A stretch of 64,000 nucleotides of DNA from Acidimicrobiia bacterium. GTDB taxonomy: Bacteria; Actinomycetota; Acidimicrobiia; Spongiisociales; JAHEDJ01. Each line of letters begins with the position of its first letter. Within the stretch, counting starts at the first letter, position 1. The notes under the pieces were generated by a model that was not told the DNA's origin, searched no databases, and saw only the letters and a program-made list of their open reading frames with translations. Position numbers and translations under genes: made by a program. The DNA is taken from NCBI GenBank assembly GCA_029210695.1, contig JARGFH010000014.1, positions 1-64,000 of the forward strand. Direction: 5' to 3'. This document shows, one piece after another, positions 10,343 through 64,000 of this stretch.

Positions 10343-12265
10343 TCACCCAATGCCGATCTCGCGGACCGGGTGGCGGCATCGAGCCGACCGGGCCTGTGCG
10401 AGTGCCATTTCGATGATTGCCGGATCTCGGCCGGTGGTGCGGGCGAGGTGTTCGGTGGCTTGAGCCCGGTCGCGGGGCTCGGTGACACGTGCGATTACCG
10501 ATGATGCCTGTCGGATCGCCCGAGCGGTTGCCTCTGGCTCCTTGAGGTTGTGAGCCCCGACGATCTGTTCGATGAGGTGGTGCTCTATTGGGATGGCGCC
10601 GGCGAGGGCCTGCTGGAACGACCGCGTATTGTCGATGAGGAGGTCGGCGGGATCACGCTCCGGGGGCAGCCGGACGACCGACATGCGCAGTTGGCGGCCG
10701 GCGAGATCGAGTTCGGCCACGCGCTCCACAGCACGCAGTCCGGCGTTATCGCCGTCGAACGCAAGCGTTACCTTGCCGGCGATTTGCCCGAGCTGGTGGA
10801 GGTGCTCTGAGGTGAGGGCGGTGCCGGCTGTGGCGATGGCGTTGGTGAATCCGGCTTGATGAGCGGCGATGACATCGAGGTAGCCCTCTACCACGATGGC
10901 GTTGCCGATCTCTCGGATGGGTTCTTGGGCGAGGTGAAGGCCGTAGAGGAGCGACCGCTTCCGGTAGAGCTCGGTCTCGGGGGTGTTGAGATACTTGGGC
11001 CCTTCGCCTTCGAGGAGGCGGCCGGCGAAACCTCGAGGTCGTCCGCTGGGGTCGAAGACGGGGAAGACGACCCGGTTGCGCATCCGGTCGTAGAGGCGTC
11101 CAGTCCGAGCCCGGCCGGCGACACCAGCTTCGATGAGGATGTCCTCGCTGAACCCTTGATCGAGGAGAGCGGTGGTCAAGGCCCGCCAGGAGTCAGGAGC
11201 CCATCCCAGATGCCACACCGACGTCGCTTCCTCCCCGATGCCGCGGGAATGCAGGAACCTGAGAGCCCGCTCTCTGCTGTCGTTTTCGAGTTGGTGGCGG
11301 TAGAACGTCACCGCAGCTTCGAGGACCTCCATGAGCTCGGAACTTGGCGGTAGCTCCACGGCAGGAGAAGGCTGCGTCTGGACCAGCGACTCGTTCGATG
11401 CCGGGTCGAGCTGAAGTTCGCGGTGGTGTTCGATCTCGGTGAAAACGGTGCGGGCGCAGCCGATGACCCGATTGGCGGTAGCTGTGACCTTGGTGACGTC
11501 GCCTCCACTCCACGATGCCACGTAGGGCAGGCTGTAGCCGGCGCTGTCGATTCCGAGGGCTGCGCAGACCACATAGGCGACGGATTCCGCTTCCACTTCG
11601 ACGATGCCACGACACGCCGGCCGGTCTCCTGACTCTGGTTCGTGCAGCCGCACGTGGGCGAGTTCGTGCACCGCGGTCTTAAAACGCTGTGCGCCGGGCA
11701 GGCTGGCACGAACAACGACATCCCGATGGCGCCAATCGGTGATGCCGTTCGCTTCCCCAAGTCGTTGATCATCGGCGACCTGGAATCCGAAACCGGCCTC
11801 GGTGATCAGGTTGGTGACGTGGTTCCAGTCGGCAGGCAACTCACCATCCACCAGGGCTGCGGTGACCTCGGGGAGCGGTTCGCCGTCGGTCTGGGCGATA
11901 TCGAAGACGTGGACGACCCGGTAGCCGACCACCCGCCGTTCCTCTTCCTTCTCCTCGCCGTCTTCGGCTGCGACCTTGCGGACAACCGGAGCGAGGATCT
12001 GCAGACCCTTCTCGCCCTTACGTACCTGGCGGCCGAGCCCCTGCCAAGCCCGGTAGCCGGCCACCCGCCTGGGCGTGAAACCTCGGGCGAGTGACTGCGC
12101 CCAGATGAGCCGGGTGTTGGAGAACGAATAGTCGTGGAACCGGGCCGCCACCGCCAGGGCTCGCTGCCAGTCGTCCGAGGTGACCAGCTCGGCGAGCGAA
12201 TCCCGGAGTTGATCGTGGAGATAATCCACGACATCGCTGCGGTCGGTGGTTCGCGTGCTTTCCAC
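10343..12265 (-). CDS. ArdC-like ssDNA-binding/metallopeptidase-fold domain fused to DnaG-type TOPRIM primase core
   Basis: N-term YSFSNTRLI...GYRAWQGLGRQVRKGEKG...HELAH...EVEAES; C-term YDRMRNRVVFP...GFAGR...PKYLNTPET...VVEGYLDVI...GTALT...AFDGDNAG. Confidence 0.9.
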   Translation of the reverse strand: MESTRTTDRSDVVDYLHDQLRDSLAELVTSDDWQRALAVAARFHDYSFSNTRLIWAQSLARGFTPRRVAGYRAWQGLGRQVRKGEKGLQILAPVVRKVAAEDGEEKEEERRVVGYRVVHVFDIAQTDGEPLPEVTAALVDGELPADWNHVTNLITEAGFGFQVADDQRLGEANGITDWRHRDVVVRASLPGAQRFKTAVHELAHVRLHEPESGDRPACRGIVEVEAESVAYVVCAALGIDSAGYSLPYVASWSGGDVTKVTATANRVIGCARTVFTEIEHHRELQLDPASNESLVQTQPSPAVELPPSSELMEVLEAAVTFYRHQLENDSRERALRFLHSRGIGEEATSVWHLGWAPDSWRALTTALLDQGFSEDILIEAGVAGRARTGRLYDRMRNRVVFPVFDPSGRPRGFAGRLLEGEGPKYLNTPETELYRKRSLLYGLHLAQEPIREIGNAIVVEGYLDVIAAHQAGFTNAIATAGTALTSEHLHQLGQIAGKVTLAFDGDNAGLRAVERVAELDLAGRQLRMSVVRLPPERDPADLLIDNTRSFQQALAGAIPIEHHLIEQIVGAHNLKEPEATARAIRQASSVIARVTEPRDRAQATEHLARTTGRDPAIIEMALAQARSARCRHPVREIGIG

Positions 12266-12299
12266 CCTCGGATGATCCGATTCGACCCTGTTGTTCGAG

Positions 12300-12672: not shown

Positions 12673-12704
12673 CAACACCACACGCACGTGCAACAGGTTG
12701 TTGC
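12673..12704 (-). other. Putative oriT / MOBF nic site
   Basis: Minus strand TGTTGCACGTGCGTGT^GGTGTTG resembles the F-type nic (GGGGTGT^GGTG); adjacent inverted repeat gcaaca-ggt-tgttgc; about 40 bp upstream of the MOBF relaxase. Confidence 0.7.
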
Positions 12705-12737
12705 GGGTGTATCAGTTGACCGGATCGGGGGGTCTGG

Positions 12738-18957: not shown

Positions 18958-19042
18958 CAGGCCTCTCTTCTGCCCTGTCGATTCTTCAACTTGACATTGG
19001 CAATTTCTGCTGGTCCGACCGGTCAATCTGGCTGGTCGGTTG

Positions 19043-20773: not shown

Positions 20774-20831
20774 GGTCTACCTCGTTTGGTTGGCTTTCGT
20801 CTGATTGGTGCCTGATCCTGCGATCTATTTG

Positions 20832-24095: not shown

Positions 24096-24103
24096 AACTC
24101 AGA

Positions 24104-36856: not shown

Positions 36857-38355
36857 GCCGTGCTCCTGCGTCGGGCGTGTTGCCACGCCGCCGCAGCGTC
36901 GGCCGGTGTCGGCTGGTGTTTGCGGCGGGGCATGTTGGGTACCTCGTTGGTGATTTCTCTGATGGTGTGGGTGACGCCGAGGCTGGTGAGCCCGCCGGAT
37001 TGGTAGGGGCGGATCCAGGTGGCGCCGTGGGCGCCGCCGATGCGGTTGCCTTCGAGACGTTGGAGGGTGGAGTCGGCGAAGCGTTGGGAGATGTCGAGGA
37101 GTTGGCGGCGGCCGACGGTCATTACTGCCATGAAGAAGATGACGAGCAGGAACCTGGTCCACATCCCCCCGGCCACCGTGAGGAGTCCGTTGAGTCCGGT
37201 GACGAGGAGGGCCAGGAAGATGCCCATGACGATGACGAGGGCGACGACCCGGACCAGGGCGGCGACCCAGTGCCACAGTAGGGAGCGTCCGGCGCCGGGG
37301 AACAGCCCGGCGTAGAGGGCAATGGGGAGCAGGGCGATGAGGAACAGGGCGAGGCCCTTGGCGACGACGAGGGTGAAGGCGGTGAGGACGAACAGGGCCA
37401 ATGCGGCGGCGGCGACGATGAGGTACAGGAACGCTCCGACGAGCCGGGAGACGGTGGCGTCGTTGTTGAAGGTGGCCTGGGCGTCGCAGCCTGCGGTTTG
37501 CATGAGTTGGCGGGGGGTGTCGTCGAAGCCGTGCGGCCCCGATGCCAGCGCCTCGTTTCTCGCCGGGGCGCAGCTGGTGTTTTGGAGGGTTTGGCCCCAG
37601 TTGATGGTGTCGTAGGGGTCCCTGACGAACCCGGTCATCAGCGCGGTGCTCACCTGTCCGGTGGCGTCGCCGTCGGAGCCGGTGTTGGCGGAGAGGGCGA
37701 CGATCTCGGTGGAGATGCCACCGGCGGTCTGGATCGCACCGGTGACGGCTCCCCCGAACCCCGACCCGGTCGAGACTGCGACGAGGACGGCGTAGACGAT
37801 GAGGGTGAGGGCGAACTCGCCGGCTCCTGCCCCGAAGCGGCCTTTGAGGAACTGCCAACCCATGTAGAGGGCGGAGACGACCAGCCCGAGATGGGATAGC
37901 CGCATCGGCCCCAAGATGCGGGCGTCGAGCAGGTTGCCGACGGTGGCGGCAGCGTCGGTGAGGGCACCCTCGATGACGAACCCGGTGGCCGCCTCCAGCA
38001 GCCATATGGCGACGGCGACGAGGATCTTGGCGAGCGAGAAGACCAGGTTGGTGGCGGTGCCGACGGTGACACATCCGATGTCGCCGACGAACCCGTCGTT
38101 GGCGCAGCCGATGTCGTAGCGTCCGATCTCGACCACACCGTCCGCTTGGTTGGTGGGGTAGTCGGTGGGTGGGTACAGCTCCTGACCCATCTCGGTCGGT
38201 GGAGCGGGTTCGTCGACCTGTGCCTCGGCGGGGGTCGCAGCGAACAGCTCGATTGCGACGATGGCGGCGAGCAGCCAGACGATCGCCCACGCCCAACCAT
38301 CCAGGGAGCTCGATCGGAGTCGGGGGCGGCGTGGCCCGCCATCAGGCTCGTTCAT
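36853..38355 (-). CDS. Polytopic membrane protein, VirB6/TrbL/TcpH-like
   Basis: Multiple hydrophobic helices, PYDTINWG motif, position between VirB4 and the hydrolase; ATGA overlap with virB4. Confidence 0.8.
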   Translation of the reverse strand: MNEPDGGPRRPRLRSSSLDGWAWAIVWLLAAIVAIELFAATPAEAQVDEPAPPTEMGQELYPPTDYPTNQADGVVEIGRYDIGCANDGFVGDIGCVTVGTATNLVFSLAKILVAVAIWLLEAATGFVIEGALTDAAATVGNLLDARILGPMRLSHLGLVVSALYMGWQFLKGRFGAGAGEFALTLIVYAVLVAVSTGSGFGGAVTGAIQTAGGISTEIVALSANTGSDGDATGQVSTALMTGFVRDPYDTINWGQTLQNTSCAPARNEALASGPHGFDDTPRQLMQTAGCDAQATFNNDATVSRLVGAFLYLIVAAAALALFVLTAFTLVVAKGLALFLIALLPIALYAGLFPGAGRSLLWHWVAALVRVVALVIVMGIFLALLVTGLNGLLTVAGGMWTRFLLVIFFMAVMTVGRRQLLDISQRFADSTLQRLEGNRIGGAHGATWIRPYQSGGLTSLGVTHTIREITNEVPNMPRRKHQPTPADAAAAWQHARRRSTA

Positions 38356-40853
38356 GTGGCCACCCCTTCCGCTAGCTCGGATTCGTTTCCGAGGCTCGCT
38401 ACCGAGGGCCAGGGTCCAACCATCAGTCGCCCGGCGGTACCGGGGGTCGTCGAGAAGGCGTCGGCGACCGCCGGATCCTCCGGCGTGGCGATACGGACCA
38501 GCCCGAGCCGTCCCCTCGGGTCGCGCATCAGACACTCACCAGTCCCGAGCGAGGTGACCGTCGCGAGGTTCTCGTCGCGGTCGTCGGAACCGAGGAACCG
38601 CAACGCGGCCGGAGCGGCCTGGTGCGGTTGGCGGAACACCATCCGGTACCCCAACAGCGCATCAACATCCTCACCGTCGCCGGTGAGGTCGGTCGGGAGC
38701 TGGCTGAACGCCCACACCGCGGCGTAGTGTTTGCGGCCGTCCCGGATCAGATCCATCACCAACCCGTGCCCCTGCGTGCTCGCGGTGAGGGCGTGGGCTT
38801 CGTCGAGCAGTAGTGCGGCGAACCGGTCGCTGCTGCGGAACAGCATCCGCCTGGAGAACGCCGCGACCAGGTACAAGATGGCCTGACCGAGCAGCTCCTC
38901 GGGAAGCTGGTCGTCTCGGGGTGTGCCGGTGCGGGGGAGGCGGAGTCCGGGGATGTGGAAGCACACATAGTCGCCGCTCAGGTTCACTACGGGTCCGGGG
39001 TCGTCGAAGACGAGCCGGCCGTACGAGACCCCAGCGAGAGCGGACAGTTTCTCGGCAACCTCGCTCCCGGGTCCGCCGCTCGACTCGAGGTGGGCGATCA
39101 GATCTCGGAGACGTGGCTGCGTCCCGGTTTCAACGGCCGACTCGAGGGTGTGTTGGGCGGCCCGGTAGCAGTGGGCGGCGGCAGCGGAGCCCGGTGGGGT
39201 GGCGGTGAGCAGGGTGATGAACCCGACGCCGTAGCGGAGCCGCAGCTCGTCGCTGTCGAACACCTGAAACGGGTCGAGCCCGACCTTTGCGTCGGCGGAG
39301 ATCTCCACGATCTGTGTCTCGCCGGTCAGGATGGCGGCGAGTTGTCCGTATTCGCAGGTGTCGGTGCGGTCGACCACGACCACCTGGCCGCCCATTGCCA
39401 CCGTGTTGTAGGCGAGGGTCTTGGCCAGGAAGCTCTTACCCGACCCGAGCTCCCCGATCGCCGCCAACGACCCGGACCGGTTCAGATCACGCGGCCCATG
39501 CGCCGGATCGAGGAACACCGGCACCGGGTATTGGGCGTCGAGCGAGTGGCCGAGCAGCATCCCACCCGGGTCACCGACACCGGACCCGGCGAACGGCATC
39601 GCCGACGCCAACCCATCCGGCAACAGGTCCTGTGCATACTCGCGCACCACCGGCGGCGACGCCGACCCGGGGAGCATGGCGGTGAAACAGGAGAGCTGGG
39701 CGCCGGTGGGTCGGTAGAAGTTGAACTCCGCCCCCCGGAACGAGGCTTCGAGGATCCCCACCCGCCGTTCCACCTCACCGAGATGCCGGTGCGCAACGGC
39801 GACGATGGTGGTGGCCCGGAACGCAGGCAGCGCCGGGTTGGATTCGAGGCGTGCCCGGTGTTCGTCGACCATGTCAACCGAGCTGGCCAGGGTGGTGGCG
39901 GGACCGGCCGGGTCGCCACCCGGTTCGGTCAGCTGCCCCACCAGGTTCCGTTTGGCCCGCAGGGCGCGCCGGCGGGCCGCCTGGTTGTCGATCTTCTCGA
40001 TCCGGAGTGCCCAGTCGACGGGGAAGGGGAGTTGGTCGTCGAGATGCCACAGCCACTCGCCGGACCCGTATGGGAACGACCACGACGCCGGAAGCTCGGC
40101 GAGACACGAGAACGCCTGATGGGCGGTCCCATAGTCGGGGTGCTCGACGGTGAGGTAGCGCCGATGCGACAGTCGGTCAGGGTCGCTGCGGCGGCCTCCC
40201 TCGAAGTAGACGGCGTCCCGATCCAGCCGCACCACCGACACCCGATCGCGCTCGCTGTCGACGGAAGTGGGAGGTTCGATCAACCCGCGCAGCACGGCCC
40301 GCTCGAACAGCCACCGCAGCTCTGGTGATCGGAGCGGCCGCAACCCGAGATGTTGGCCCAACTGATCGGCCAGCGATCGGCTCGCCGCCATCGCCGCCGC
40401 CACCCGCCTCGAACCGGGAGTCGCCGCCGGAGTACCGAACGTCGCCGCCACCTCTCCCGCTGCCGTGCGCAGCCGATCCACCACACGGCGAGTCCCGCCC
40501 GGTTCGGGAAGCTGGATAGCGAGGAACCAGCGTCGCTCGTACACCGGCTCACCAGCGAGACGGAGCGCGGTACGACGTGCCAGCCCAACCCAGCTCGCCG
40601 ACCTCTCTACCGCGTCGCCGCTGATGCGTCGCTCCAGCTCGTCAGCGGACAGCTCGACAGCCACGGACAGGACGAGCGAGTGGGCCGGGAGACCGAGCAG
40701 GGCGGCCACGGTGCGGGCGTGGGCGTCCCTGGCATCGCGGGTCGACCGGTGCGGGTAGGCGAACGGACCCACCTCAAAGCACACCCACGCCGTACCGTCG
40801 GTGCCCCACACGAGATGGTCGTTGATGCCGTGGACCGGGAGCGGGCTACCCAT
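38352..40853 (-). CDS. VirB4-like ATPase (ConE/TcpF, AAA_10)
   Basis: GELGSGKS, LLLDEAH, RDGRKH, LGTGECLMRDPRGR; start MGSPLP after GAGGTG (alternative start 40871). Confidence 0.92.
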   Translation of the reverse strand: MGSPLPVHGINDHLVWGTDGTAWVCFEVGPFAYPHRSTRDARDAHARTVAALLGLPAHSLVLSVAVELSADELERRISGDAVERSASWVGLARRTALRLAGEPVYERRWFLAIQLPEPGGTRRVVDRLRTAAGEVAATFGTPAATPGSRRVAAAMAASRSLADQLGQHLGLRPLRSPELRWLFERAVLRGLIEPPTSVDSERDRVSVVRLDRDAVYFEGGRRSDPDRLSHRRYLTVEHPDYGTAHQAFSCLAELPASWSFPYGSGEWLWHLDDQLPFPVDWALRIEKIDNQAARRRALRAKRNLVGQLTEPGGDPAGPATTLASSVDMVDEHRARLESNPALPAFRATTIVAVAHRHLGEVERRVGILEASFRGAEFNFYRPTGAQLSCFTAMLPGSASPPVVREYAQDLLPDGLASAMPFAGSGVGDPGGMLLGHSLDAQYPVPVFLDPAHGPRDLNRSGSLAAIGELGSGKSFLAKTLAYNTVAMGGQVVVVDRTDTCEYGQLAAILTGETQIVEISADAKVGLDPFQVFDSDELRLRYGVGFITLLTATPPGSAAAAHCYRAAQHTLESAVETGTQPRLRDLIAHLESSGGPGSEVAEKLSALAGVSYGRLVFDDPGPVVNLSGDYVCFHIPGLRLPRTGTPRDDQLPEELLGQAILYLVAAFSRRMLFRSSDRFAALLLDEAHALTASTQGHGLVMDLIRDGRKHYAAVWAFSQLPTDLTGDGEDVDALLGYRMVFRQPHQAAPAALRFLGSDDRDENLATVTSLGTGECLMRDPRGRLGLVRIATPEDPAVADAFSTTPGTAGRLMVGPWPSVASLGNESELAEGVAT

Positions 40854-41274
40854 CCGACACCTCGCCGTCATGCTGGCCTCGAGTGATCACGACACGCACA
40901 GGGCGCGCCCTCACCGGTCGAGGGATTGGAACGGGCGCTCCGTTGCGGACCCCGCGGCGACACCCCGGCGACACAAGGACGGTGGCGACGCCGACCGCCA
41001 CCAGGAATGGAGAGCGTCCCTCGATCCGCCAGTGCCGTACCGCCCACGCCGAGCCGGCCACCGCCAGAGCGAAGACCGCCAGGTTGCCGACAGCACCCAG
41101 ATGCGCCCACATCGGACGAGTGATCAGCAGCAGACCGCTGGTAGCGGCGACCGCACCCAGCTGCGATGCCGACAGCGCCCACGGCAAACGCCACCCGGCG
41201 ACGTGGCCGATGATCACTGGATGCCGCAGCGCCTGCGTGTACGAGAAGTAGACGTCGGTGTCCATGGCGGTCAC
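40846..41274 (-). CDS. TcpE-like (VirB3-equivalent) membrane protein
   Basis: SYTQALRHPVIIGHVAGWRLPW, two TMs, RIEGRSP; immediately upstream of virB4. Confidence 0.75.
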   Translation of the reverse strand: MTAMDTDVYFSYTQALRHPVIIGHVAGWRLPWALSASQLGAVAATSGLLLITRPMWAHLGAVGNLAVFALAVAGSAWAVRHWRIEGRSPFLVAVGVATVLVSPGCRRGVRNGAPVPIPRPVRARPVRVVITRGQHDGEVSDG

Positions 41275-41544: not shown

Positions 41545-42471
41545 TCAATCGGTGTCTGTTGTTACGAGAAGGGGAGCGGGGAGGAGATCGGAAACTTCCC
41601 AGCGGCCGTCACGCTGAGAGACCATCAGCGAGTACTCAAGGAGCTGTGCCCGGCCGTCGGAATCGGTCCCACGGACGAGGACGGAGATGGGAGTGACGCC
41701 GTCTGATGGTTCGGCCGATCCGGCTGCTGCGACCTCGATCTCGACAAAGGGTGGAGGCTGGACTGCGACGATCTCGAGCGCAGGAGCGACGTACCGGGTC
41801 AGGTCGCCCTCACTCGCGAGGTAGGCGGCGAAGAACTCGGCCAACAGCTCGGCGACCGCCGGCTCGACATCGAGACCATCGAGACGGTCAACCAGCAACG
41901 CGGGTGCTTCCACGTTGGGCGGCGCTGAGATCAGCGAGGGGAGACCGGTTGCTGTCCAGCCGTTCCTGGTCTCGGCAACACCCACAGCGAAGAACCGGGT
42001 CCCCGTCGGCACCGTGGCGGGCGCCCGGCCCGGCTCGGTCACGTGCGCAACGACCTCGGCTGCAACCGTCACCGCGTAGTAGCCCGGGGCCACTTCTTGC
42101 GCACCCAGGCTGACGGTGCTGGTCGCCGACCACGCTCCATCCTGGACACTTGTGGGGGAGTCCGCGCCGAGTATTGATTCGGCACCGCCGGACGACTCCG
42201 CACCCGCTGCCACGTACGAGGCAATGAACAGCTCAGCGAAACCCTCCGCCCCGGATGTGTCGATCGCAGTTGCGGTCGCGGGTTGAGCGGCAGCCGCATC
42301 GACACGGGCATCCAGTGATGCCAGCTTGCCGGCGATGATGAGCGCGGCGGCGGGCCCGGACACCACCAGAAGCCACAACACGACGTGGAGGATTCGCACC
42401 GTGACCGCGGGGCTCAACCAGTCACGGACGCTTCCCTCGGAGGAAGCCACACGGTCGGTGCCGGTGTTCAT
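41545..42471 (-). CDS. TcpC-family conjugal transfer protein (VirB8-like)
   Basis: Single N-term TM, GFAELFIASYV, EFFAAYL...LTRYVAP, YSLMVSQRDGRWEVS. Confidence 0.85.
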   Translation of the reverse strand: MNTGTDRVASSEGSVRDWLSPAVTVRILHVVLWLLVVSGPAAALIIAGKLASLDARVDAAAAQPATATAIDTSGAEGFAELFIASYVAAGAESSGGAESILGADSPTSVQDGAWSATSTVSLGAQEVAPGYYAVTVAAEVVAHVTEPGRAPATVPTGTRFFAVGVAETRNGWTATGLPSLISAPPNVEAPALLVDRLDGLDVEPAVAELLAEFFAAYLASEGDLTRYVAPALEIVAVQPPPFVEIEVAAAGSAEPSDGVTPISVLVRGTDSDGRAQLLEYSLMVSQRDGRWEVSDLLPAPLLVTTDTD

Positions 42472-43678: not shown

Positions 43679-43722
43679 ACCCTGTCACCAGAATGTCATC
43701 AACCCTGTCAGAAACCCTCCAA
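43679..43722 (-). promoter_or_regulatory. Triple TGACA(GGGT) box upstream of the T4SS operon
   Basis: accctgtca-ccagaa-tgtca-tca-accctgtca-gaaaccctccaa; 11/12-bp period; 22 bp identical to 12307-12328. Confidence 0.7.
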
Positions 43723-43914
43723 ACCTGGGAACGTCGCTTGGAATGTCGCTTGGTTGGCGACGCCAGAGGAGTTTGCTTGTGAACGCAGTCCAGCTGCGGC
43801 TCGCCACAGATTCCGACGAACTGCGTTCTCGATCGGACTCCCGTGGTGTCGATTCCCGTGTGCAGGGTGTCAATGCCTTGCGCACGCAGCCGATTCCAGT
43901 GGCCCTGTCAGTTG

Positions 43915-45705
43915 TCAGGTTGCCTTGTAGGGGATGAAGTAGTGGCCGCCACCGTCGGGGCCTCGGGCATGGCTTGCCTCGATCAGATGGGTGCCGGGCG
44001 CGGAGCTTCCAAGGTGACCAGCGAGGAGGCTGACAAGCGAGCCGGCAAGACATGCGAGATCGGCCGCCGATCCGTGGAATGTTGGAGTTGAGCAGCCGAG
44101 GGCAGGCACGAGTTGGTCGGTCTTCCTTGGTGGTGTCCAGAATCCATGGAAGCGTTCAAGGGTCGGATCGGTGTGCACTGCGAGCCAGGTGGCGTCGTCG
44201 ATGGTGGCCGGCCCGAACGGGGCGGCGGGATCCGCAACGGCGAGGATGCCGAGTGTTGCGCTTCGCGGATCGGTGGCGACTTGTGCGATGAGGGGTCGGC
44301 CAGAAGCGGCCCGCGCCCACTCATCGAGCCGCGCTCCGACTGTGACGTTGATCGTTGCGTCGATCAGGATGTCGGTCGTCGGGACATATCCGTCGGCGAG
44401 CACGTCGAGTGCACTAGACGGCTCGGCGGACACCTCAAGGTCGTCGGAGATCGCGCGGAGCCGCATTGCGAGTTGGGTTGCCTTGGGGAGGCCGACGTCA
44501 TCCTCCGTGTAATTCTGTCGCACCAGGAGCCCGCCAGCCACAGCTCCTGTGTCCCGGAGGACGAAGCGTCGGGCACCCGCACGGGCAATGAACTCGGCCA
44601 TCCATGAACCGAGGCCACCGCAGCCCCAAATCTCGATGGTCTTGTCTGTGTAGGCCGATGTAGGTCGTTGGTGGTCGCGACGAGTGGCGATTTCAGTCCG
44701 TTCATCAGACACGGTGATCCATCCGATCGGCAGGTTGTGTAGGTGGCTAGCGATGGTCGCTCGCTGTGTGGCGATGCGTGGCACGGGTGCCATGGCGCAG
44801 GCGACGTAGGTAAGAGATTCGACGGCTGGGTGGGCAACCTCGACGATGATCCGAAGGGTCCCGTCGGTGAGATGAGGCAGGAGTCGTTCAACAGCTCCGA
44901 GGACTGCTACCACCGGTGGTCCCTTTGCAGCCTCGACACGGGCGAGGAGATCACCCAGGGTGGACGTACGCCCCAATCCGAGCACCATTGGCTCTTTGGT
45001 GCGAACCACGAGTGCGCTCGTCGTGCTGGCTGGGTCGTCGCCGGATCGTTTCGCCCAGCGGACCAGGTCGCTGCGATGTGGGGCGCGGCTCTCGATTGTG
45101 GCGAGGCTGATTGGCTTTCGGGGCGGGGCTGGCGTCGATGGTCGAACGATCAGGGTCCCGGCAACGCGGGGGCTGGGCGGGAGGCCTCCGATAGGGTGGT
45201 AGAGCGCAGTTCGGCTGTCGAATCGGTCGGCAGCAGCATCTTCGAGCCACTCGACCAGGCGGGCGACTACGCGATCGAGACCGAAGGCGGGGTGCCATTC
45301 GCGAGCGACATCGAGGTAGATGCAGATCGAGCAGAAGAACACATCAGGGAAGCGAACACATTGTGCCAGCACGTGGGGATAGCCAAGAAATCGCTTGTGC
45401 CGGACGACGACGGAGGGAGGCTTGTCGGGGTAGTCACGTCCGAACCAGAGTTCGAACTCCTCGCTGTTCGGCGAGATCGGCAATCCGGAGCCGACTCGAT
45501 CCAGTGTCTGCGTGGATAGGCGCAGGAGCGCGCCGTACTCGCCCTTCCCAGCCTCTAGATGCTTGGCGGCCAGAACCAGGGGGTGGCGGTTGGGGAGTTC
45601 GCGCATTTCCGCGGCTGCTCTCGTCTGCCCGGGCGTGTGCCGTCCGGCGGGCGCGGCGGCCTGCTGTCTGCGCTTCGGTCGGCGTCGCTTCGCCTTGCTC
45701 GACAT
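43915..45705 (-). CDS. cap2: CBASS Cap2-like E2-E1 (ThiF) ubiquitin-like transferase
   Basis: DYPDKPP...GYPHV...SICIY (E2 Cys); IWGCGGLGS, GLLVRQNY, IDAT, LGCSTPTF (E1 Cys); directly downstream of the CD-NTase. Confidence 0.88.
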   Translation of the reverse strand: MSSKAKRRRPKRRQQAAAPAGRHTPGQTRAAAEMRELPNRHPLVLAAKHLEAGKGEYGALLRLSTQTLDRVGSGLPISPNSEEFELWFGRDYPDKPPSVVVRHKRFLGYPHVLAQCVRFPDVFFCSICIYLDVAREWHPAFGLDRVVARLVEWLEDAAADRFDSRTALYHPIGGLPPSPRVAGTLIVRPSTPAPPRKPISLATIESRAPHRSDLVRWAKRSGDDPASTTSALVVRTKEPMVLGLGRTSTLGDLLARVEAAKGPPVVAVLGAVERLLPHLTDGTLRIIVEVAHPAVESLTYVACAMAPVPRIATQRATIASHLHNLPIGWITVSDERTEIATRRDHQRPTSAYTDKTIEIWGCGGLGSWMAEFIARAGARRFVLRDTGAVAGGLLVRQNYTEDDVGLPKATQLAMRLRAISDDLEVSAEPSSALDVLADGYVPTTDILIDATINVTVGARLDEWARAASGRPLIAQVATDPRSATLGILAVADPAAPFGPATIDDATWLAVHTDPTLERFHGFWTPPRKTDQLVPALGCSTPTFHGSAADLACLAGSLVSLLAGHLGSSAPGTHLIEASHARGPDGGGHYFIPYKAT

Positions 45706-45714
45706 GGTCTTGTA

Positions 45715-46731
45715 TCAGCCGCCGCGCCCGGCCCCGACGGCAGCGAGCCCTGCACCGGCGGTGCCGGCGTTGGAGGAGCCGCCACCACTCGACGTGGCCG
45801 GGAGCTTGAAGTCCAGGCCGAAGACCTTCTGCCACAACTCAAGGCTGTGTTCAATCGACGTGTCGTCCTCATACGCGACCTTGGTATCGGCCGCGATGGA
45901 CGAGATCTTCTTCCGGAATGCCTGGTAGGTGTCCTCTGTCCAGCGGTGGTCGAAGGTGATCGGGTTACCGTCGGGGTCGGTGGCACCTGAGGGATCGGCG
46001 ATGGAGGGCTTGGTTGGGTTGGCCTGGAGCCATTCGTTCAAGTCGGTGATTAGGTGGAAGAAGGTGGTTGGCAGATCCTCGTAGTAGGACGGGTCTGCGA
46101 TCTTGCTAGCTGCGTCGACTCGTTCGCCGAGCATCGCCGTGAGCAGGACGGACCGGGTGCGCCTGAAGCTATCGCGATGGTCGCGAAGGTACTTCAGCAG
46201 GCGGATGACCCGCTTGAGGTGGCCGCCGGTGGTGTCGTTCTTCTCTTTCATCCACGCGGTGAAGCCGGCGGGGTCGGTGTCTTCCCACTCGTCGCCGTCA
46301 CCGTTGACGATGACTTGACGGCCATCGCTCAGCACGACGAAAGGTACAACATCGACGTGGTAGTCGCCGGCGTACACGACGCGTACGCATCGGCACTTGG
46401 GCGGCTTGACCAAGTCCTTGTAGGTGCCGTTCCGGGCGAGTGCCGCGTGGACCACAGTGATGTACGTCTTGGGGCTATGGGCCCAGGCCTCCTGCTCGTC
46501 CATGACGAGCATGAAATCAGCGTCGAACTCCACACCGTCCGCCGGCTTGATGATCGTCCCGTGTGGCCACGAACCCTGCGGGTCGTAGTCGAGGACGATC
46601 GAGCCGATCTCACTATCGGCTTGGAGAGCGTCGAAGATTGCGGGGACACTCACGTCCAGGTTGTCGATTCGCGTCTGGTTGATATTGACCGTATTGGTCA
46701 TGAACGCGTTGAAGCTTGCAGTCATTCTCAT
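45715..46731 (-). CDS. CBASS CD-NTase (SMODS nucleotidyltransferase)
   Basis: PQGSWPHGTIIKP...EFDADF, RCVRVVYAGDYHVDVVP, LKRVIRLLKYLRD, WQKVFG; flexible tail ending GRGG. Confidence 0.93.
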   Translation of the reverse strand: MRMTASFNAFMTNTVNINQTRIDNLDVSVPAIFDALQADSEIGSIVLDYDPQGSWPHGTIIKPADGVEFDADFMLVMDEQEAWAHSPKTYITVVHAALARNGTYKDLVKPPKCRCVRVVYAGDYHVDVVPFVVLSDGRQVIVNGDGDEWEDTDPAGFTAWMKEKNDTTGGHLKRVIRLLKYLRDHRDSFRRTRSVLLTAMLGERVDAASKIADPSYYEDLPTTFFHLITDLNEWLQANPTKPSIADPSGATDPDGNPITFDHRWTEDTYQAFRKKISSIAADTKVAYEDDTSIEHSLELWQKVFGLDFKLPATSSGGGSSNAGTAGAGLAAVGAGRGG

Positions 46732-47906
46732 TGTGCGCTGACCTCCAGTGCAGGGTGGTAGGAGCCGTCGTCGCGTCGGTCGTAGACGACGAGGCGGGGA
46801 TGGATGCCCCAGCCGACGGAGCGGCCGAGGGTGACGCCGACCGAGACCGGTGCGGCTGGGAACACGTGGATGCGCCGGACGGTCTTGTCCGACTGCTCGA
46901 GTTGGCCGAGCATCTTGCGAACCGCTCGCTCAAACGAATCGCGCACACGACGGCTACATACCGAATCAGTATGTGGTGTGCCGTCCAACTCGACGAAATA
47001 GGTGGGAAGGCCAGCAGTCTCTGCCGGCAGCTCGGCGGGGTGGATCGTCCCTGAGGCATTGATGATTAGGACAGCGTCGGTGGCCGGACGGGGTCCGGGT
47101 GCGTGCGACGGGTCCTCGCGCCGGGCCACGAACTCAGGGTCATCGTCGGCCGCTGCCGGCCAGATCCAGTTCTCCGTGGCGCGGTGTCGTTGGAACACGT
47201 CGACGGTGAGGGCGTCATCGATGCGCGAACCGAGGTAGACAAGCAGGGGGAAGCGGGCAATCGCGAATACGCTGAGATGCGGCACGATGCCCTTCTCGAC
47301 GGCGGGCCGAAGGCGTTGAGCGATGACCTCGTCGATCCGGGAGGCTGCTGCTTTGTAGTAGCTATCGGCGGCGGTGAGTTCGCCGGAGATCTGGCGAAGG
47401 TCGATCTCGACGCCCCGGCGGTCGAAAGACAGAGCGAGTTCGGGAAACCGGTTCGAGGAGCGAAGTACTGCCTCCGTCGCAGCCTCCACGCCAAGGTCGA
47501 CAGTTGCCCCGCGCACGTGCCCCTGCATGCGGAGCAGCACCGTACGTCTGCGACCAACGGTCTCGGTAGCCTCGAAGACCCGACGCTCGTGTTCCTCCTT
47601 CAACGTGCTGATCTGCTCCACGGTCAGTAGATCGAGTTGCGCACGCTTGTCGGCGTCGGGGTGATGGAGGCCGCAGAGCAGCAGCAGGTTGTCCGCCGCA
47701 TTTCGCTGGTCGCCTGGAATCTGATGATCGCCTCGGGGGCCCGCAGCACTTGCTGCAACGTTGTGGGCGACCTCGCCGAGCAAGACCGGTCGCAGGGTCA
47801 GATCCGACTCCAGCAGGTACGCATTGCAGAAAGCGCACCGTCCACCCGAGCGTACCCACACTCTTAGTCGTTCGTTCTCCGGAACCTTGCCTCGACGTCC
47901 AGCCAT
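46728..47906 (-). CDS. cap5: CBASS effector, HNH endonuclease-SAVED (Cap5-like)
   Basis: SGGRCAFC, GEVAHNVAAS..GPRG, NLLLLCGLHH; SAVED HLSVFAIARFPLLVYLG...IHVFPAAPVSVGVTLG. Confidence 0.9.
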   Translation of the reverse strand: MAGRRGKVPENERLRVWVRSGGRCAFCNAYLLESDLTLRPVLLGEVAHNVAASAAGPRGDHQIPGDQRNAADNLLLLCGLHHPDADKRAQLDLLTVEQISTLKEEHERRVFEATETVGRRRTVLLRMQGHVRGATVDLGVEAATEAVLRSSNRFPELALSFDRRGVEIDLRQISGELTAADSYYKAAASRIDEVIAQRLRPAVEKGIVPHLSVFAIARFPLLVYLGSRIDDALTVDVFQRHRATENWIWPAAADDDPEFVARREDPSHAPGPRPATDAVLIINASGTIHPAELPAETAGLPTYFVELDGTPHTDSVCSRRVRDSFERAVRKMLGQLEQSDKTVRRIHVFPAAPVSVGVTLGRSVGWGIHPRLVVYDRRDDGSYHPALEVSAQ

Positions 47907-48090
47907 CTGCTTCACCTCGCCAGTATGAATGCACGGTGTGACACTTCTCGCGACACACCGACTACGTGCGGCGCTCGCCACGAACCTTCGCCTGCCCGAG
48001 GCTCAGTGCGCTCGCCGACACGCAGCTTCTCCGCTCGGGGTCCCGGATCCTGAGGCATCACGCCGCCCGTACGGCTCACGCGCCGCCCGT

Positions 48091-49825: not shown

Positions 49826-50086
49826 CTGCCTATGAGTTCGAGGCTGAGGTCGGCTGGCCTGCCCCGGGGGTTCTGCTTCAGGAGCTCCTCGAGAGCGTGG
49901 TCAGCGTACGCGAAGCCGTCAAGGCCTGGGCAGGCCAACCATCCCGCAGCGAATCACGCGGATGCTGTCAACCACCTCAAGACTGAACCGGGAAGGGAGA
50001 TAGAGGAACGAAAAACCGGAATCGGGGAGCGATCTGTCCCCGCCCAGTGACGATAGCAATCCTCGGTCTACGTGCGTCGCTCAAAC

Positions 50087-54328: not shown

Positions 54329-54733
54329 ATGGAATCATCACATACCGATCCTGATCCTGAGGTTCCGGTGCGGGCCCGGCCGCCGCGGAGCTATTCGGCG
54401 AAGTACAAGGCCCGGATCCTTGCCGAGTATGAGGACCTGTCGAAGGGTGACAAGGGGGCGTTGTTGCGACGGGAGGGCCTGTACTCGTCGCTGATTTCGG
54501 AGTGGCGGAAACAACGTGACCGGGGAGCTCTCGAGGCGTTGTCGAAGTCGTCGGGTCGCCCACCGGCTGATCCGTTGGAGCGGGAGAACGTCCGGCTGGT
54601 CCGGGAGAACCGGCGTCTCGAAACGGATTTGGATAAGGCTCGCAGGGTGATCGAGGTGCAGGGGAAACTCTCGGCGTTGTTGGAGCAGCTCGCCACCGGC
54701 AGCGCCACCGAGACGAGGGGCGAGAAGCAATGA
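54329..54733 (+). CDS. IS3-family transposase OrfA
   Basis: [12 protein letters not shown]...[18 protein letters not shown], leucine-zipper-like [13 protein letters not shown]. Confidence 0.9.
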
Positions 54734-55749
54734 TCGATGAGGCGATCGACGAGTTGGCGCCGGTGGTGGGGGTCACCGGGGCGTGTCTGGCGACGGGTCG
54801 GCCCCGTTCGACCCATTACCGCCGGCACCGGCAGAGCCCGCCACCGCCGAAACCCGAGCGGGTCCCGCAGCTCCAACCGCGGGCCCTTTCGGAGGTGGAA
54901 CGCAAAGAGATACTGCGGGTGTTGCATGAACCCGACCATGTCGATGAGGCACCCGCAACGGTGTTCGCCAAGCTGCTCGACGAAGCAACCTATCTGGCGT
55001 CGGTATCGACCATGTACCGGATTCTGCGGGCCGAAGGAGAGGTGGGTGACCGGCGCCGCCACGCCACCCACCCTGCCCACAAGAAACCTGAACTGATCGC
55101 TGTGGCACCCAACGACGTGTGGAGTTGGGATATCACCAAACTGCTCGGCCCCCACAAGTGGAGCTACTACTACCTGTATGTGATCATCGATATCTACTCG
55201 CGGTATGTGCCCGGGTGGATGCTCGCCGACAAAGAGAACGGCCGGCTGGCCGAGCAGCTACTCGCCGAGACCACCGCCAAACAACACATCGAACGTGACC
55301 GGCTCACCATCCACGCCGACCGCGGTTCACCAATGGTCGCCAAACCCGTAGCGCATCTACTCGCCGACCTCGGAGTCACCAAGAGCCATTCCCGGCCGCA
55401 TGTCAGCAACGACAACCCGTACTCGGAGAGCCAGTTCCGTACCCTCAAATATCGGCCCGAGTTCCCCGAACGCTTCGGCAGCATCCAAGACGCCCGCAGC
55501 TACTGCAACTGGTTCTTCGGCTGGTACAACAACCAGCACCGCCACTCCGGTATCGGGTTCCACACCCCCGCCGACGTCCACTACGGCCGGGCCGAAGCCA
55601 TACAGCAACAACGAGCCCAGGTCCTCAACGCCGCCTACGCCGCCCACCCCGAACGATTCGTCCGGAAACCACCCCAACCACCGGCCCTACCCACCGCGGC
55701 CTGGATCAACCCGCCACCCGACAGCGAGGACAACACAACGACACAATGA
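54730..55749 (+). CDS. IS3-family transposase OrfB (rve/DDE)
   Basis: [50 protein letters not shown]. Confidence 0.93.
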
Positions 55750-56834: not shown

Positions 56835-57192
56835 GGATGCACCTCCTGGGCGGCGATTGCGAACAAGCGATCCCTCGGAGGCATTGCGCCTCGGTCTGTC
56901 GCTTGGGGGAGTTCGGCGGTTCGAGCATTGGGCACCAGAGTACGGGTCGGGTGTGACGGGTCGGGTGTAACCCCGTTCGCAGGGGTCGGCGACCGTGGCG
57001 CGCAGGATTCCGGTTTTTCGTTCCTATGTCTCCCTTCCCCTCAAGACTGAACCAGGCTTTCGCCCGTCGCTCCGCTTGGTCGATGCCTATCGTTGCGTGT
57101 CGTACTTCCGGCGCTTGGCCCGCCTTACTTGCCAAGGGGCTGGCGGCGACGGGGCTCGGGCCTGACGTGTGGTGAGCATTGCTCCATCGCGC

Positions 57193-61552: not shown

Positions 61553-62683
61553 TCAGTTGCCAAGACGGAGCACGGTGCTACGTGCATCCCTGCTTAGCGT
61601 GCGTGAAGCCAGCTGGGCCTCAAGGCGCTCTGCTGCGGCCTCGTCGGCGCCTTCGTAGAGATGGCCGTACACGTCCAGAACTGTGCGTACCGAGGTGTGG
61701 CCTAGCCGGTCGGCGATCACCTTCGGGTGTTCGCCCTGGGCGATGAGGAGCGCTACCTGGGATCGGCGCAGCGTGTGAGTTCCCAGGTCCTGGTCCAGGC
61801 CGGCACCGGCGAGGGCGCGCTTCCACACACGACGCATCCACGCCGTTCTCCGGATGGGGCCACCTTCCGGTGCCGGGAATATCCAGGCTTCCGGTCCGGT
61901 CTCATCGAGCCGGGCGATGTGCTCGATGAGTTGCTCGGTTATCGACCGGGGGAGCACGACGGTTCTTATGCTCTTCGTCGTCTTGGGTGGACCGACGATC
62001 ACCTCGCCCCGCACGTCGGACGCCGTTCGGCGAACGCGGATCAGACTCCTGAGAGGATCGAAGTCGCCGAGTTGAAGACCAGCGAGCTCGCCGATCCGAA
62101 GCCCACCAAAGGCGCCGACGAGCACGAGTGCCCTATAGCGAGGGTCGATCGCATCGGCGAGACGCATCACCTCCTCGACCGTGAAGGCAACAGGTTCGCT
62201 CCGCTCGATCTTGGGGAGCCGGACATCGCGGGCGGGGGAGAGGGCGATCAATCGATCTCGCACCGCCAACCGGAACACGCCGGAGGCGATCTGCCATGCC
62301 TTCTGGACGGTGGCCGGCGCCTTGCCCTCCGCCATCAGATCGGCGACCCACGCCTCGAGATCAGACGGCTGCACGCTCCCGACCGGCTTGTCACCGAGGT
62401 GGGGGAGCACGAGCGAGTGGAGATAGGACCGATCTCGAGCTTGGGTGGACTTCCGGAGCGCCACGCGCCCCGCCAACCACCGCTCGGCGACCGACTCGAA
62501 TAGCACTCGCCCCGCCCGGGGGTCCACCCATTCCCCTCGGTCGAGCTTGACCAGTTCGTTGTTCAACCAGCGTTGGGCGTCGATCCGACGATCGAACGTC
62601 CGAGAGCGCCACCTCCGATCGGGAGCCTGATACCGCGCCCGGTACCTCCCGTTTTCGCGTCGGTCGATTGTCGTCCGGGCCAT
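61553..62683 (-). CDS. int: Tyrosine recombinase / phage-type integrase
   Basis: GRYRARY N-terminal arm-binding domain; GLRIGEL, PKT, HTLR, LGH, VYGH catalytic residues. Confidence 0.95.
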   Translation of the reverse strand: MARTTIDRRENGRYRARYQAPDRRWRSRTFDRRIDAQRWLNNELVKLDRGEWVDPRAGRVLFESVAERWLAGRVALRKSTQARDRSYLHSLVLPHLGDKPVGSVQPSDLEAWVADLMAEGKAPATVQKAWQIASGVFRLAVRDRLIALSPARDVRLPKIERSEPVAFTVEEVMRLADAIDPRYRALVLVGAFGGLRIGELAGLQLGDFDPLRSLIRVRRTASDVRGEVIVGPPKTTKSIRTVVLPRSITEQLIEHIARLDETGPEAWIFPAPEGGPIRRTAWMRRVWKRALAGAGLDQDLGTHTLRRSQVALLIAQGEHPKVIADRLGHTSVRTVLDVYGHLYEGADEAAAERLEAQLASRTLSRDARSTVLRLGN

Positions 62684-62705: not shown

Positions 62706-62939
62706 TCATCCTCTCCCGCTGACACTACGTCGTCGGGACGACACAAACTCATGCGGTTTAGGCTCGATGCGTTCCTGGATCCACTGTTGCACGTCACGCC
62801 ACCGGTAGCGGAGGTGCCGACCCACCCGAAACGCCGGCGGTCCCTCCCTCCGGTAGCGCCAGGCATAGAGCGTCTTGACCGGCACCTCGAGGTAGGCGGC
62901 GAGCTCGCGGACGTCGACAAGGCGCTCGTCGTGTTCCAT
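62706..62939 (-). CDS. xis: Excisionase (HTH_17)
   Basis: ELAAYLEVPVKTLYAWRYRREGPPAFRVGRHLRY; directly upstream of int. Confidence 0.9.
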   Translation of the reverse strand: MEHDERLVDVRELAAYLEVPVKTLYAWRYRREGPPAFRVGRHLRYRWRDVQQWIQERIEPKPHEFVSSRRRSVSGRG

Positions 62940-62958
62940 CGCGAAATCATGCCGGGGC

Positions 62959-63258
62959 ACCCTGTCAGACGGATGTCAATTCGTTGCCATTGGAGTTGCA
63001 CATTGCAGATTCAGAGACTCGCCCCGTGGTTCGGGTGCCTCCGGTGGGAGCCTCGATAGAGCCAATGATTCCGGGCGTTGACAGGGTCCCTGACAGGGTT
63101 GCGGACATTCTGCGGAAAGGGTGGTCGACGGCTCCGAGTGTGATCTCGACATGGCCGGGCTGCCGATCCGCCGCTCGAAGTGGCCTCGTGCCTACAACGA
63201 GAACAACACAGGGGTAGAAAGGTCCCCGGCTTGCCGTATGACAGCCCGGTGACAGGGT
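62959..63258. promoter_or_regulatory. Divergent cluster of TGACAGGGT boxes
   Basis: Minus-strand copy 62959-62967 facing xis; plus-strand copies 63079-63087, 63091-63099 and 63250-63258 facing the oriT copy. Confidence 0.65.
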
Positions 63259-63534
63259 CGTCGGGTTGGATGCCGCTCATGAGACGACCAGAACCGACCA
63301 TGCCGACACTGAATCCGATGGAGTGGCGCCGTGGAGGTGGCCATCCCACACGTCGGCTGGAGCGTGACCGCCACTGCAACGCAACACAAACGATGACGAC
63401 AGCAGCGGAATCCGAATGCTTGCAGTCCCCAGGCACTGAACCGCCCCCACGCTCCGGAGAGCAATCGCCTCCAGCACTACGAACGTCGACGAAAGCGCAC
63501 CGCACCCAGATCGCGATTCGCGCTCACCACCCTC

Positions 63535-63557
63535 CAACACCACACGCACGTGCAACA
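63535..63557 (-). other. Second copy of the putative nic/oriT core
   Basis: caacaccacacgcacgtgcaaca identical to 12673-12695. Confidence 0.75.
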
Positions 63558-64000
63558 CTTCCTGTGTCAAGCCCTGGGTGGTTTGGTTGGTGTTGTCAGG
63601 GCGCGTGGGAGTGGGGCCGCGGCGCGGCCCGTCAGCGGGTGGGTTGTTGGTTCTAGCCGGTTAGGGATTGGAGGTTGCCGTGCCGGTCGGGGTTGTAGGG
63701 GGTGTGGTCGGTCCAGCATCTCCAGATGACCCGGATCCAGGCTCGGGCCAGGACGCGGATGGCGTGGGGGTGGTCACAGCCTCTTGCTCGTGCCTGCCGG
63801 TAGACGTCGTTGGCCCATTGGTTGCCGTGGCGGCTGTTGTTGGCGTAGGTGGTGATGGCCTGTCGGAACCATTTGTTGCACGCCCGTCGGAACAGCACGT
63901 TTCTGTATTTGCCGGATTGTCGGGTGATGGGAGACACGCCTGCTTGTGCGGCGACCGATTCTGCGTCTGGGTAGGCTTGGCGGACGTCGCCCCATTCGGC
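63558..64000 (-). mobile_element. IS110-family element (3' part only)
   Basis: Transposase C-terminus followed by about 95 bp of non-coding DNA ending ...cttgacacaggaag; boundary approximate. Confidence 0.75.
63653..64000 (-). CDS. IS110-family transposase, C-terminal part (runs off the window)
   Basis: AQAGVSPITRQSGK...RRACNKWFRQA...YRQARARGCDHPHAIRVLARAWIRVIWRCW. Confidence 0.9.
   Translation of the reverse strand, partial: AEWGDVRQAYPDAESVAAQAGVSPITRQSGKYRNVLFRRACNKWFRQAITTYANNSRHGNQWANDVYRQARARGCDHPHAIRVLARAWIRVIWRCWTDHTPYNPDRHGNLQSLTG

Follow-up and report, generated by a model that had tools for sequence, protein, structure and literature searches.

The first 64,000 nt of contig JARGFH010000014.1 from an Acidimicrobiia bacterium (assembly GCA_029210695.1; this whole stretch is referred to here as the window) carry two copies of a 23-nt sequence (23-mer), CAACACCACACGCACGTGCAACA, both on the plus strand. 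The 23-mer most likely represents the core of an origin of conjugative transfer (oriT) of the F-plasmid type, which appears to be common to a conjugative element and to a small hitch-hiking island. Its second copy is interrupted by an insertion sequence (IS) of the IS110 family. The explanation that best joins these observations is that the 23-mer is a MOBF oriT core, that its copies belong to an integrative and conjugative element (ICE) and to a separate island, that the IS110 element lies in the hairpin of the island, and that this IS lineage recognizes the hairpin; taken as a whole, it is judged reasonably probable.

Two copies of a putative transfer-origin core

Copy 1 and copy 2 of the 23-mer (Table 1) have no third counterpart in the window at up to 3 mismatches, and 0 of 100 shuffles contain a match. 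Their upstream flanks are unrelated, except for a CCCTC placed with a 1-nt offset. In copy 1, the inverted repeat is completed by GCAACA (12690-12695), GGT, and TGTTGC (12699-12704). In copy 2, identity ends at 63557, and CTTCCTGTGTCAAG... takes the place of the second arm; sequence comparison thereby confirms the abrupt stop that a preliminary description of this DNA had reported at the point where copy 1 continues its inverted repeat. The two directly repeated cores are 50.9 kb apart, and relaxase, type IV secretion system (T4SS), defense, and integrase-excisionase (int-xis) genes lie between them.

Copy 1 is located directly upstream of a gene for a TrwC-type relaxase, whose start codon lies 43 nt past the 23-mer, and is read as the putative oriT of an Acidimicrobiia-type conjugative element. 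Full-length homologs of this relaxase, 70-81% identical, are found behind the same motif in four other loci (L004, L016, L019, and L024), and the synteny with an ArdC-primase gene on the other side of the motif is kept in six (L004, L017, L019, L024, L029, and L037). A search of the plasmid collection returned no distant match to the oriT-relaxase region.

A motif family in Acidimicrobiia genomes

A scan of genome contigs, with the inner 19-mer of the 23-mer as the key, returned 46 loci (L001 to L046), nearly all of them from metagenome-assembled genomes of Acidimicrobiia or unclassified Actinomycetota. A uniform model predicts an estimated ~4 chance hits, and L007 (Chloroflexia), which has none of the other features, was taken as one. 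With L041 and L046 counted once, 44 distinct related loci are obtained, or 46 distinct sites together with the two window copies. L041 and L046 are located on one 60.6-kb contig, 22,436 bp apart and 100% identical over 20,019 nt, and represent either two copies in tandem or a concatemer derived from a ~22.4-kb circle with a serine recombinase, the motif, and a SEC-C-motif protein.

The second arm, GTTGC, follows within 8 nt in 45/48 sites (the 46 loci plus both window copies), the arm-less sites being L007, window copy 2, and L040; among the distinct related loci the count is 43/44. The uninterrupted family in this way indicates the form of the empty site of copy 2, hairpin included. Loops are AA in 33 sites and ACA in 9, while CAA, CCTC, and GGT occur once each, with 6-bp arms. 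The common layout consists of the 19-mer, a short hairpin, a GT-N2-AC repeat, and a ribosome-binding site, followed by a gene for either a TrwC relaxase or a SEC-C-motif protein. The TrwC relaxase is the next gene in 9/44 loci (L004, L013, L016, L017, L019, L020, L024, L029, and L037) and at window copy 1. An intact SEC-C-motif protein of 148-189 aa comes next in 25/44, and a truncated, frameshifted, or contig-end-cut one in a further 5/44 (L003, L005, L012, L033, and L043), which gives 30/44 for this protein in any state. The hairpin is kept but followed by other sequence in L001, L022, and L031 (3/44); the contig ends 37 nt past the site in L045 (1/44); and an IS-end segment follows the site in L040 (1/44).

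On the upstream side, 22 loci contain a tyrosine integrase gene within 3.1 kb, whose product is 30-47% identical to that of the window. Large serine recombinases are found at this side in L014, L030, L031, and L041, and an ArdC-primase in 6 loci, plus a fragment in L038. Additional degenerate copies of the motif within the loci (at most 4 mismatches) are limited to three 4-mismatch matches, none of which is followed by a hairpin arm. The whole window has no Rfam match at gathering scores, and L021, L030, and L040 yield only tRNAs and one sub-threshold match; no known RNA family in Rfam covers the motif or the IS ends. The 2.5-kb contig of L020 holds integrase, excisionase, motif, and relaxase contiguously, which suggests that some elements have the int-xis module directly on the leading side of a relaxase-linked oriT. 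Literature searches found no paper on an Acidimicrobiia oriT family, and a search for ICEs in Acidimicrobiia returned no oriT paper.

Comparison with the transfer origins of F and R388

Along the bottom strand, the distal arm GCAAC and the loop precede the proximal arm (T)GTTGC, which is followed by ACGTGCGTGT and GGT; the portion within the 19-mer is the proximal arm, 10 nt, and GTGT|G, the bar marking the predicted nic. In the F oriT (L051), the traM-sense strand reads ...GCACC ACACCCCAC GCAAAAAC AA GTTTTTGC, that is, CACC|ACAC, 9 nt, and an arm-AA-arm hairpin, and the bottom strand consists of two arms separated by TT, followed by 9 nt that end in GTGT and by GGTGC. The five bases around the scissile bond of F, G144' to G140', are given as GTGT|G in the available text of PMC2504302. 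The nic pentanucleotide is thus identical in the two systems, which also have the hairpin center C-AA-G in common. The arms are 5-6 bp long here and 8 bp in F.

The R388 origin offers a functional map. According to the available text of PMC4176350, its proximal arm and nt 17-25 cannot be dispensed with, changes in the distal arm are tolerated, and the loop and nt 27-32 are unconstrained; in the donor, recognition by TrwC is confined to the proximal arm. The pattern in the present family would fit this asymmetry, with a 19-mer that is invariant, though in part because it was the search key, and another arm that floats at the end of 2-4-nt loops; the sequence beyond the nic is only moderately conserved across the family. 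In F and R388 as well as here, a hairpin, a short single-strand stretch, and a nic (here a predicted one) are placed on the strand opposite the transfer genes, and a TrwC-family relaxase is encoded beside the site. Differences include the host, which is an actinomycetotal lineage represented by Acidimicrobiia metagenome-assembled genomes and in which the site is known from sequence alone, and the gene order, since the relaxase gene begins 43 nt past the site and the ICE has no traM- or traY-type gene between them.

Together, these features agree with a MOBF-type oriT: an inverted repeat, about 9 nt, and a G-N-G-T|G nic on the transferred strand, with the spacing 1 nt off, as well as a TrwC relaxase that adjoins window copy 1 and 9/44 related loci. 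The oriT-like nature of the site, as claimed in the preliminary description, therefore remains the best reading of the sequence. An oriT on the top strand, with the nic after the second arm, was ruled out because the second arm is separated from the conserved GT by anything from 1 to 5 nt, depending on loop length. A TrwC-type relaxase would nick GTGT|G on the bottom strand, and transfer would then run leftwards, with the ArdC-primase side entering the recipient first and the relaxase gene last. This orientation fits that of F, which is transferred in the corresponding direction relative to traM.

A promoter or operator as an alternative function

The motif may instead be a shared promoter or operator of mobile-element genes, in which case the IS would have split a regulatory region from its gene. 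It lies at a near-constant 35-43 nt before the ribosome-binding site and start codon of two different genes. Moreover, a conserved GT is found 11 nt from the 19-mer in 43/45 hairpin-bearing sites, whatever the loop length, and the GT-N2-AC-N2-GT-N2-AC repeats that begin there resemble a site at which a protein would bind duplex DNA, placed between the oriT core and the ribosome-binding site. Both the fixed duplex register and the near-constant distance would fit a promoter or operator, and these intergenic regions also hold clusters of another repeated word, CCCTGTCA, with 9 matches vs 2.7 expected. On the other hand, a scan for sigma-70-type promoters, which was not tuned to this phylum, found none in 12200-12800 or 62900-64000. 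A regulatory function would also leave unexplained the F-like GTGT|G at hairpin distance, the conservation asymmetry that matches the relaxase map, and the crossover inside the 19-mer of L038 (see below). As a replacement for the oriT, this function is considered rather improbable. The two readings are not exclusive of each other and can coexist: in F-like plasmids, promoters and accessory-protein sites are likewise located within the oriT region.

Terminator scans of both intergenic regions (12200-12800 and 62900-64000) found none. The nine copies of CCCTGTCA, a number reached in 0/100 shuffles, all fall into three intergenic clusters (12309-12543, 43680-43910, and 62960-63257), which adjoin both oriT cores and sit upstream of the T4SS block. 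The word also precedes the 19-mer in many islands and may be recognized by a regulator or accessory protein common to these regions.

Exchange of modules at the motif

In L038 (motif at 2323-2341, minus strand), the left flank matches that of the ICE-type locus L029 at 57/60 nt, and the right flank matches that of the island-type locus L010 at 56/60. On its left side, this locus has a primase fragment and an ICE-type flank; on its right, the flank is of the island type and comes with the SEC-C protein. The flank identities therefore place a crossover inside the 19-mer. L042 and L036 exhibit the same pattern in weaker form (46/60 and 48/60 on the left). TrwC is stated in the available text of PMC4176350 to recombine nic sites with each other, and a crossover in the 19-mer would be the outcome expected from such relaxase recombination.

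A probable relaxase-less island around copy 2

The preliminary description treated copy 2 as a second oriT of the same kind. Comparison with the family leads to a different conclusion: copy 2 appears to be the oriT of a separate, relaxase-less, tRNA-integrating family of small int-xis islands and not a duplicate of copy 1. In 22 loci, a homolog of the window's integrase is placed likewise with respect to the motif, and excisionase homologs stand between integrase and motif in seven (L001, L006, L020, L023, L033, L034, and L036). The recombinase gene is accompanied in 18 loci by a tRNA gene in tail-to-tail orientation, 1.5-3.1 kb to the left of the motif. Of the 13 loci whose right flank extends over at least 5 kb, 7 contain a 43-53-nt stretch that directly repeats the tRNA 3' end, 1.6-8.9 kb to the right of the motif. 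The islands delimited by these tRNA repeats (L001, L027, L025, L008, L039, L043, and L023) measure 3.6-10.8 kb; apart from int, xis, and the motif, they carry the SEC-C protein gene and a handful of small or cargo genes. Homologs of relaxase, VirB4, VirD4, or TcpC were not detected in the island-type loci by tblastn or by a Pfam search of 124 proteins. The window holds only the left part of its island, whose right boundary lies beyond 64000; no tRNA gene was found in the window, nor was the left boundary of the island.

These islands would depend on the relaxase of a conjugative element to move. They match the pattern of the iOriT islands, which are described in the available text of a preprint (10.64898/2026.01.13.699239) as small integrated islands with a recombinase and a conjugative-element-like oriT, and with neither relaxase nor T4SS genes; for the Acidimicrobiia family, delimitation and gene absence are established in the relatives of the window's island. 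The preprint, in the same text, covers six nosocomial species, whereas the present islands reside in uncultured Acidimicrobiia and add a conserved SEC-C-motif protein beside the oriT.

The SEC-C protein (148-189 aa; for example, L030 9514-9960, minus strand) is composed of an invariant N-terminal part, a long helix, and a C-terminal SEC-C zinc motif, and its gene occupies the position of relaxosome accessory genes. An AlphaFold model built from 25 sequences has a mean predicted local distance difference test score of 69, and its N-terminal part is predicted to adopt a strand-helix-helix arrangement. A Foldseek search against the PDB gave no match with E ≤ 0.001, the weak ones including ribbon-helix-helix proteins at E 2.5-6.6, and profile searches of the PDB and Pfam returned only the SEC-C motif. 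A ribbon-helix-helix, TraM-like role for this protein would be a guess.

The association of the motif with int-xis genes raises the possibility that the window's tyrosine integrase inserted a 50.9-kb element whose attachment sites, attL and attR, are the two 23-mers, with the IS just outside. The two copies are indeed 23-bp direct repeats with unrelated flanks, and integrase and excisionase lie ~0.5 kb inside the right copy. However, the islands of the relatives are bounded by the 43-53-nt tRNA 3'-end repeats, and the motif is internal to them, beside int-xis. It accompanies tyrosine integrases that are 30-47% identical to the window's and target tRNA genes for at least six amino acids, and it also accompanies large serine recombinases (L014, L030, L031, and L041). 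The site of copy 1, furthermore, has primase on one side and relaxase on the other in 6 syntenic loci with no nearby integrase. Because the motif is internal to tRNA-bounded islands and invariant across integrases, tRNA targets, and serine recombinases, its use as an attachment site was ruled out, and the 50.9-kb element delimited by the two 23-mers is extremely improbable.

The IS110-family element

The sequence that replaces the second arm in copy 2 belongs to an IS110-family element. Its transposase fragment matches Pfam Transposase_20 (PF02371; IS116/IS110/IS902) with E 1.9e-8 and 35 bits (cut-off 21.3), a C-terminal domain characteristic of the family, and aligns to residues 291-404/405 of 405-aa IS110 transposases with up to 90% identity. 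The closest full-length homologs (P0001-P0005), from metagenome sources, are 77-90% identical over the visible part and carry PF02371 as well as the N-terminal DEDD/RuvC-like domain PF01548, which in the window's element would be encoded beyond 64000. The domain match and the alignment of homologs place the transposase stop at 63653 and uphold the claim that the 3' non-coding end of an IS110 element abuts the 23-mer. About 290 transposase codons and the left IS end lie beyond 64000.

Three plasmid relatives (L047, L048, and L049; 58-64% aa identity over the visible part) have TTGAC(A/T)CAG.. 0-14 nt past the stop codon. The tip common to all three therefore represents a conserved IS end, and the IS boundary is set at 63558, give or take a common core. 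An outward TTGACA, a -35-like hexamer, occurs at 63565-63570, 7 nt from the IS end. Between stop codon and tip, the window element has ~82 extra nt with two predicted hairpins (fold z -2.5). The IS end has no near match in the plasmid collection, where the best IS relatives by protein are 62-64% identical, and four IS relatives gave no Rfam match.

The 23-mer itself is not part of the IS end, a possibility named in the preliminary description, as it occurs with no IS in 43 other distinct related loci and in window copy 1. A different question is whether the 93-95 nt beside it form a right IS end or a separate small module, like ssr9 of ISPpu9, that is able to sit at the target alone. A second family locus, L040, contains the segment with no transposase, and homology there breaks off 2-5 nt from where the window has its stop codon; the conserved tip lies 0-14 nt past the stop codon in the three relatives and 82 nt past it here; and solo downstream modules and separate circles are described for ISPpu9 in the available text of 10.1101/2025.01.17.633520. 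Nevertheless, no second copy of the tip stands beside the window's stop codon, so that the transposase unit would have no right end, and only one solo copy is known. A separate module is thus considered quite improbable, and the segment is treated here as the right end of the IS.

Insertion into the putative oriT hairpin

The preliminary description placed the insertion directly at the nic. It is located instead in the hairpin loop of copy 2, 16 nt from the predicted nic, with the right IS end abutting the proximal arm; both the predicted nic and the proximal arm of copy 2 remain. The insertion reads GCAAC-T|TG|TTGC on the IS strand. Occupied sites, in L040 and the window, have GCAACA|CTTCCTGTGTCA, whereas empty sites of the same left-flank subtype (L031, L039, and L045) have GCAACA|AGTTGC. 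Alignment on the IS strand of the target, GCAACT-TG-TTGCACG, with the right end, ...CAGGAAG-TG-TTGCACG, points to a TG core, which would be consistent with L047 and L048 too.

The segment in L040 is a solo right-end copy, 84% identical to that of the window, at the same bond and in the same orientation, which suggests that programmed targeting is plausible. The integrases of L040 and the window are 30% identical, their left flanks have no similarity beyond 50 nt, and, over 40 positions, the flanks of the unoccupied loci L039, L031, and L045 are closer to the window (30, 29, and 28 matches) than that of L040 (26). These points speak for two independent insertions. The lack of a transposase and of an island gene after the segment in L040, together with the end of homology close to the position of the stop codon, speaks against independence and would fit an IS that has been shortened, a stand-alone module of the ssr9 kind known from ISPpu9, or a misassembly. 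Searches of the 46 loci and the window by blastn and tblastn with the IS end, the transposase fragment, and P0001-P0003 found no further IS copy besides the 93 nt of L040. A guide search in the 95-nt right end gave one 8-mer, CAACACCA, in common with the target, 15-22 nt from the insertion point; with a chance expectation of ~0.14, it is not taken as evidence.

IS110-family elements are site-specific through bridge RNAs, as stated in the available texts of PMC11208160 and PMC11208158. Preprints on ISPpu9 and ISPpu10 describe, in their available parts, site-specific insertion in repetitive extragenic palindromic (REP) sequences, and that on ISPpu10 identifies the target stem-loop as a specificity determinant. 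The present element may likewise be site- and orientation-specific, as it lies in a short, conserved, multicopy stem-loop with two occupied sites, and its outward TTGACA at the right tip is as found in elements forming a junction promoter, to the extent that the ISPpu10 text covers them. Its target differs in being a transfer-origin hairpin. The IS1111 group, in turn, inserts in attC sites and Tn21-type inverted repeats. No paper on an IS110 element aimed at an oriT was found among the literature matches listed.

The insertion could, however, have happened just once, by chance or long ago, in an element that does not prefer this target; L040 would then have acquired its segment by descent and exchanged its upstream modules later. 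Such a history would be in keeping with the small number of occupied sites (2/46), with the CCCTCCAAC left-flank subtype common to the window and L040, with the module exchange documented in L038, and with the L040 copy being a remnant that has no transposase. It is harder to reconcile with the bridge-RNA-dependent site specificity reported for the family in the sources cited above, with the 16% divergence of the inserted segments and the dissimilar integrases, and with the existence of unoccupied sites whose left flanks are closer to the window than that of L040. A single event without target preference is accordingly viewed as unlikely, although it deserves attention. The earlier proposal that the IS110 is programmed for oriT thus gains from two occupied sites with the same bond and orientation, and is held back by their being only two of 46, with L040 lacking the transposase. 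Of the readings of this junction, the most likely is that the IS lineage recognizes the conserved oriT hairpin, presumably by way of a guide.

Several points weigh against the joint explanation set out at the beginning, in addition to the promoter-like register and spacing already discussed. The oriT call is drawn from sequence architecture; the spacing from arm to nic is 10 nt here and 9 nt in F; and the invariance of the 19-mer is built in by the search key, so that more diverged family members fall outside the sample. The N-terminal part of the SEC-C protein has no significant structural or family match in Foldseek, PDB, or Pfam. As regards targeting, the two occupied sites among 46 agree in bond and orientation, and one of them is a remnant; neither a transposase nor an island gene follows the segment in L040, and its bare 93-nt end is compatible with a single ancient event and recombination. 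L047, L048, and L049 abut (TG)TCATG, a target other than the window's. The left IS end, the bridge RNA, and the far flank lie beyond the window.

Whether or not the hairpin was chosen, an IS110-family element has inserted in its center in the island, and would have pushed the distal arm and whichever gene came next at least 1.5 kb away. The nic and proximal arm would stay beside int-xis, with the distal arm removed. In light of the R388 data, donor nicking might survive while hairpin-dependent steps suffer; by analogy, nicking is probably less impaired by the insertion than is termination that depends on the hairpin. Transfer of the IS would come after that of all other DNA.

Features of the window

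Coordinates of the features discussed are given in Table 1. Several further genes occupy the interval between the two oriT cores. DUF772/DDE_Tnp_1 transposase genes are present at 15957-17342, directly after the relaxase gene, and at 30666-32465. A defense-like block on the minus strand (17441-30384), between the relaxase and T4SS genes, encodes GIY-YIG, GmrSD_N, HEPN_Swt1-DUF499, and DUF1156 proteins as well as an SNF2 helicase with NOV_C. An operon resembling a cyclic-oligonucleotide-based antiphage signaling system (CBASS) lies at 43915-47981 (minus strand) and comprises a ThiF/E2 fusion, a SMODS nucleotidyltransferase, and a SAVED-domain protein. Two 34-nt inverted repeats (49990-50023 and 57006-57039), 94% complementary and 7 kb apart, flank an rve-type transposase gene (54730-55749) and probably delimit a transposon.

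Table 1. Location of the features discussed (window coordinates unless another locus is named)
Feature	Position	Strand	Remarks
ArdC-N / DnaG-type primase fusion	10343..12265	-	Pfam; predicted leading (first-transferred) side of copy 1
23-mer copy 1, putative oriT core of conjugative element	12673..12695	+	Predicted nic on bottom strand between 12679 and 12680
Hairpin GCAACA-GGT-TGTTGC	12690..12704	.	6-bp arms, 3-nt loop
GT-N2-AC type repeat GTGTATCAGTTGAC	12707..12720	+	Between hairpin and relaxase ribosome-binding site; GT 11 nt from 19-mer
TrwC-type (MOBF) relaxase-helicase, 1032 aa	12738..15836	+	Pfam TrwC 1.5e-71, AAA_30 1.6e-50
VirD4	33205-34896		Conjugative element of the window
VirB4	38352-40871		Conjugative element of the window
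TcpC	41545-42471		Conjugative element of the window
Tyrosine integrase of island	61553..62683	-	Pfam Phage_integrase; start taken at Met of MARTTIDRR
Excisionase-like HTH_17 protein	62706..62960	-	Pfam
23-mer copy 2, putative island oriT core	63535..63557	+	Predicted nic on bottom strand between 63541 and 63542
Right non-coding end of IS110-family element, 95 nt	63558..63652	-	Tip TTGACACAGGAAG on minus strand
Stop codon and last 115 codons of IS110-family transposase	63653..64000	-	Frame open to window end
Solo IS right-end copy in L040	9258-9349 (L040)		93 nt, 84% identical to 63558-63650; same bond, same orientation

Implications

The scan defines a previously undescribed, sequence-defined family of putative oriT sites in uncultured Acidimicrobiia, which links TrwC-type conjugative elements with many relaxase-less tRNA islands of 4-11 kb. 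The motif provides a tool for finding such islands and a concrete hypothesis for their movement.

A more far-reaching scheme can be offered tentatively, and with less than even confidence. The IS110 lineage may have its guide set to a phylum-wide F-like oriT hairpin, in which case the elements of the family would serve as landing pads and the IS would ride last, with the nic left intact. In addition, a relaxase could start at one nic of the window and close at the other, moving or deleting the 50.9-kb segment with no need for an integrase, as L038 hints. If targeting of the oriT hairpin is true, the natural targets of bridge RNAs would extend from REP sequences, attC sites, and transposon ends to transfer origins, and one mobile element would parasitize the transfer signal of others, possibly modulating their transfer.

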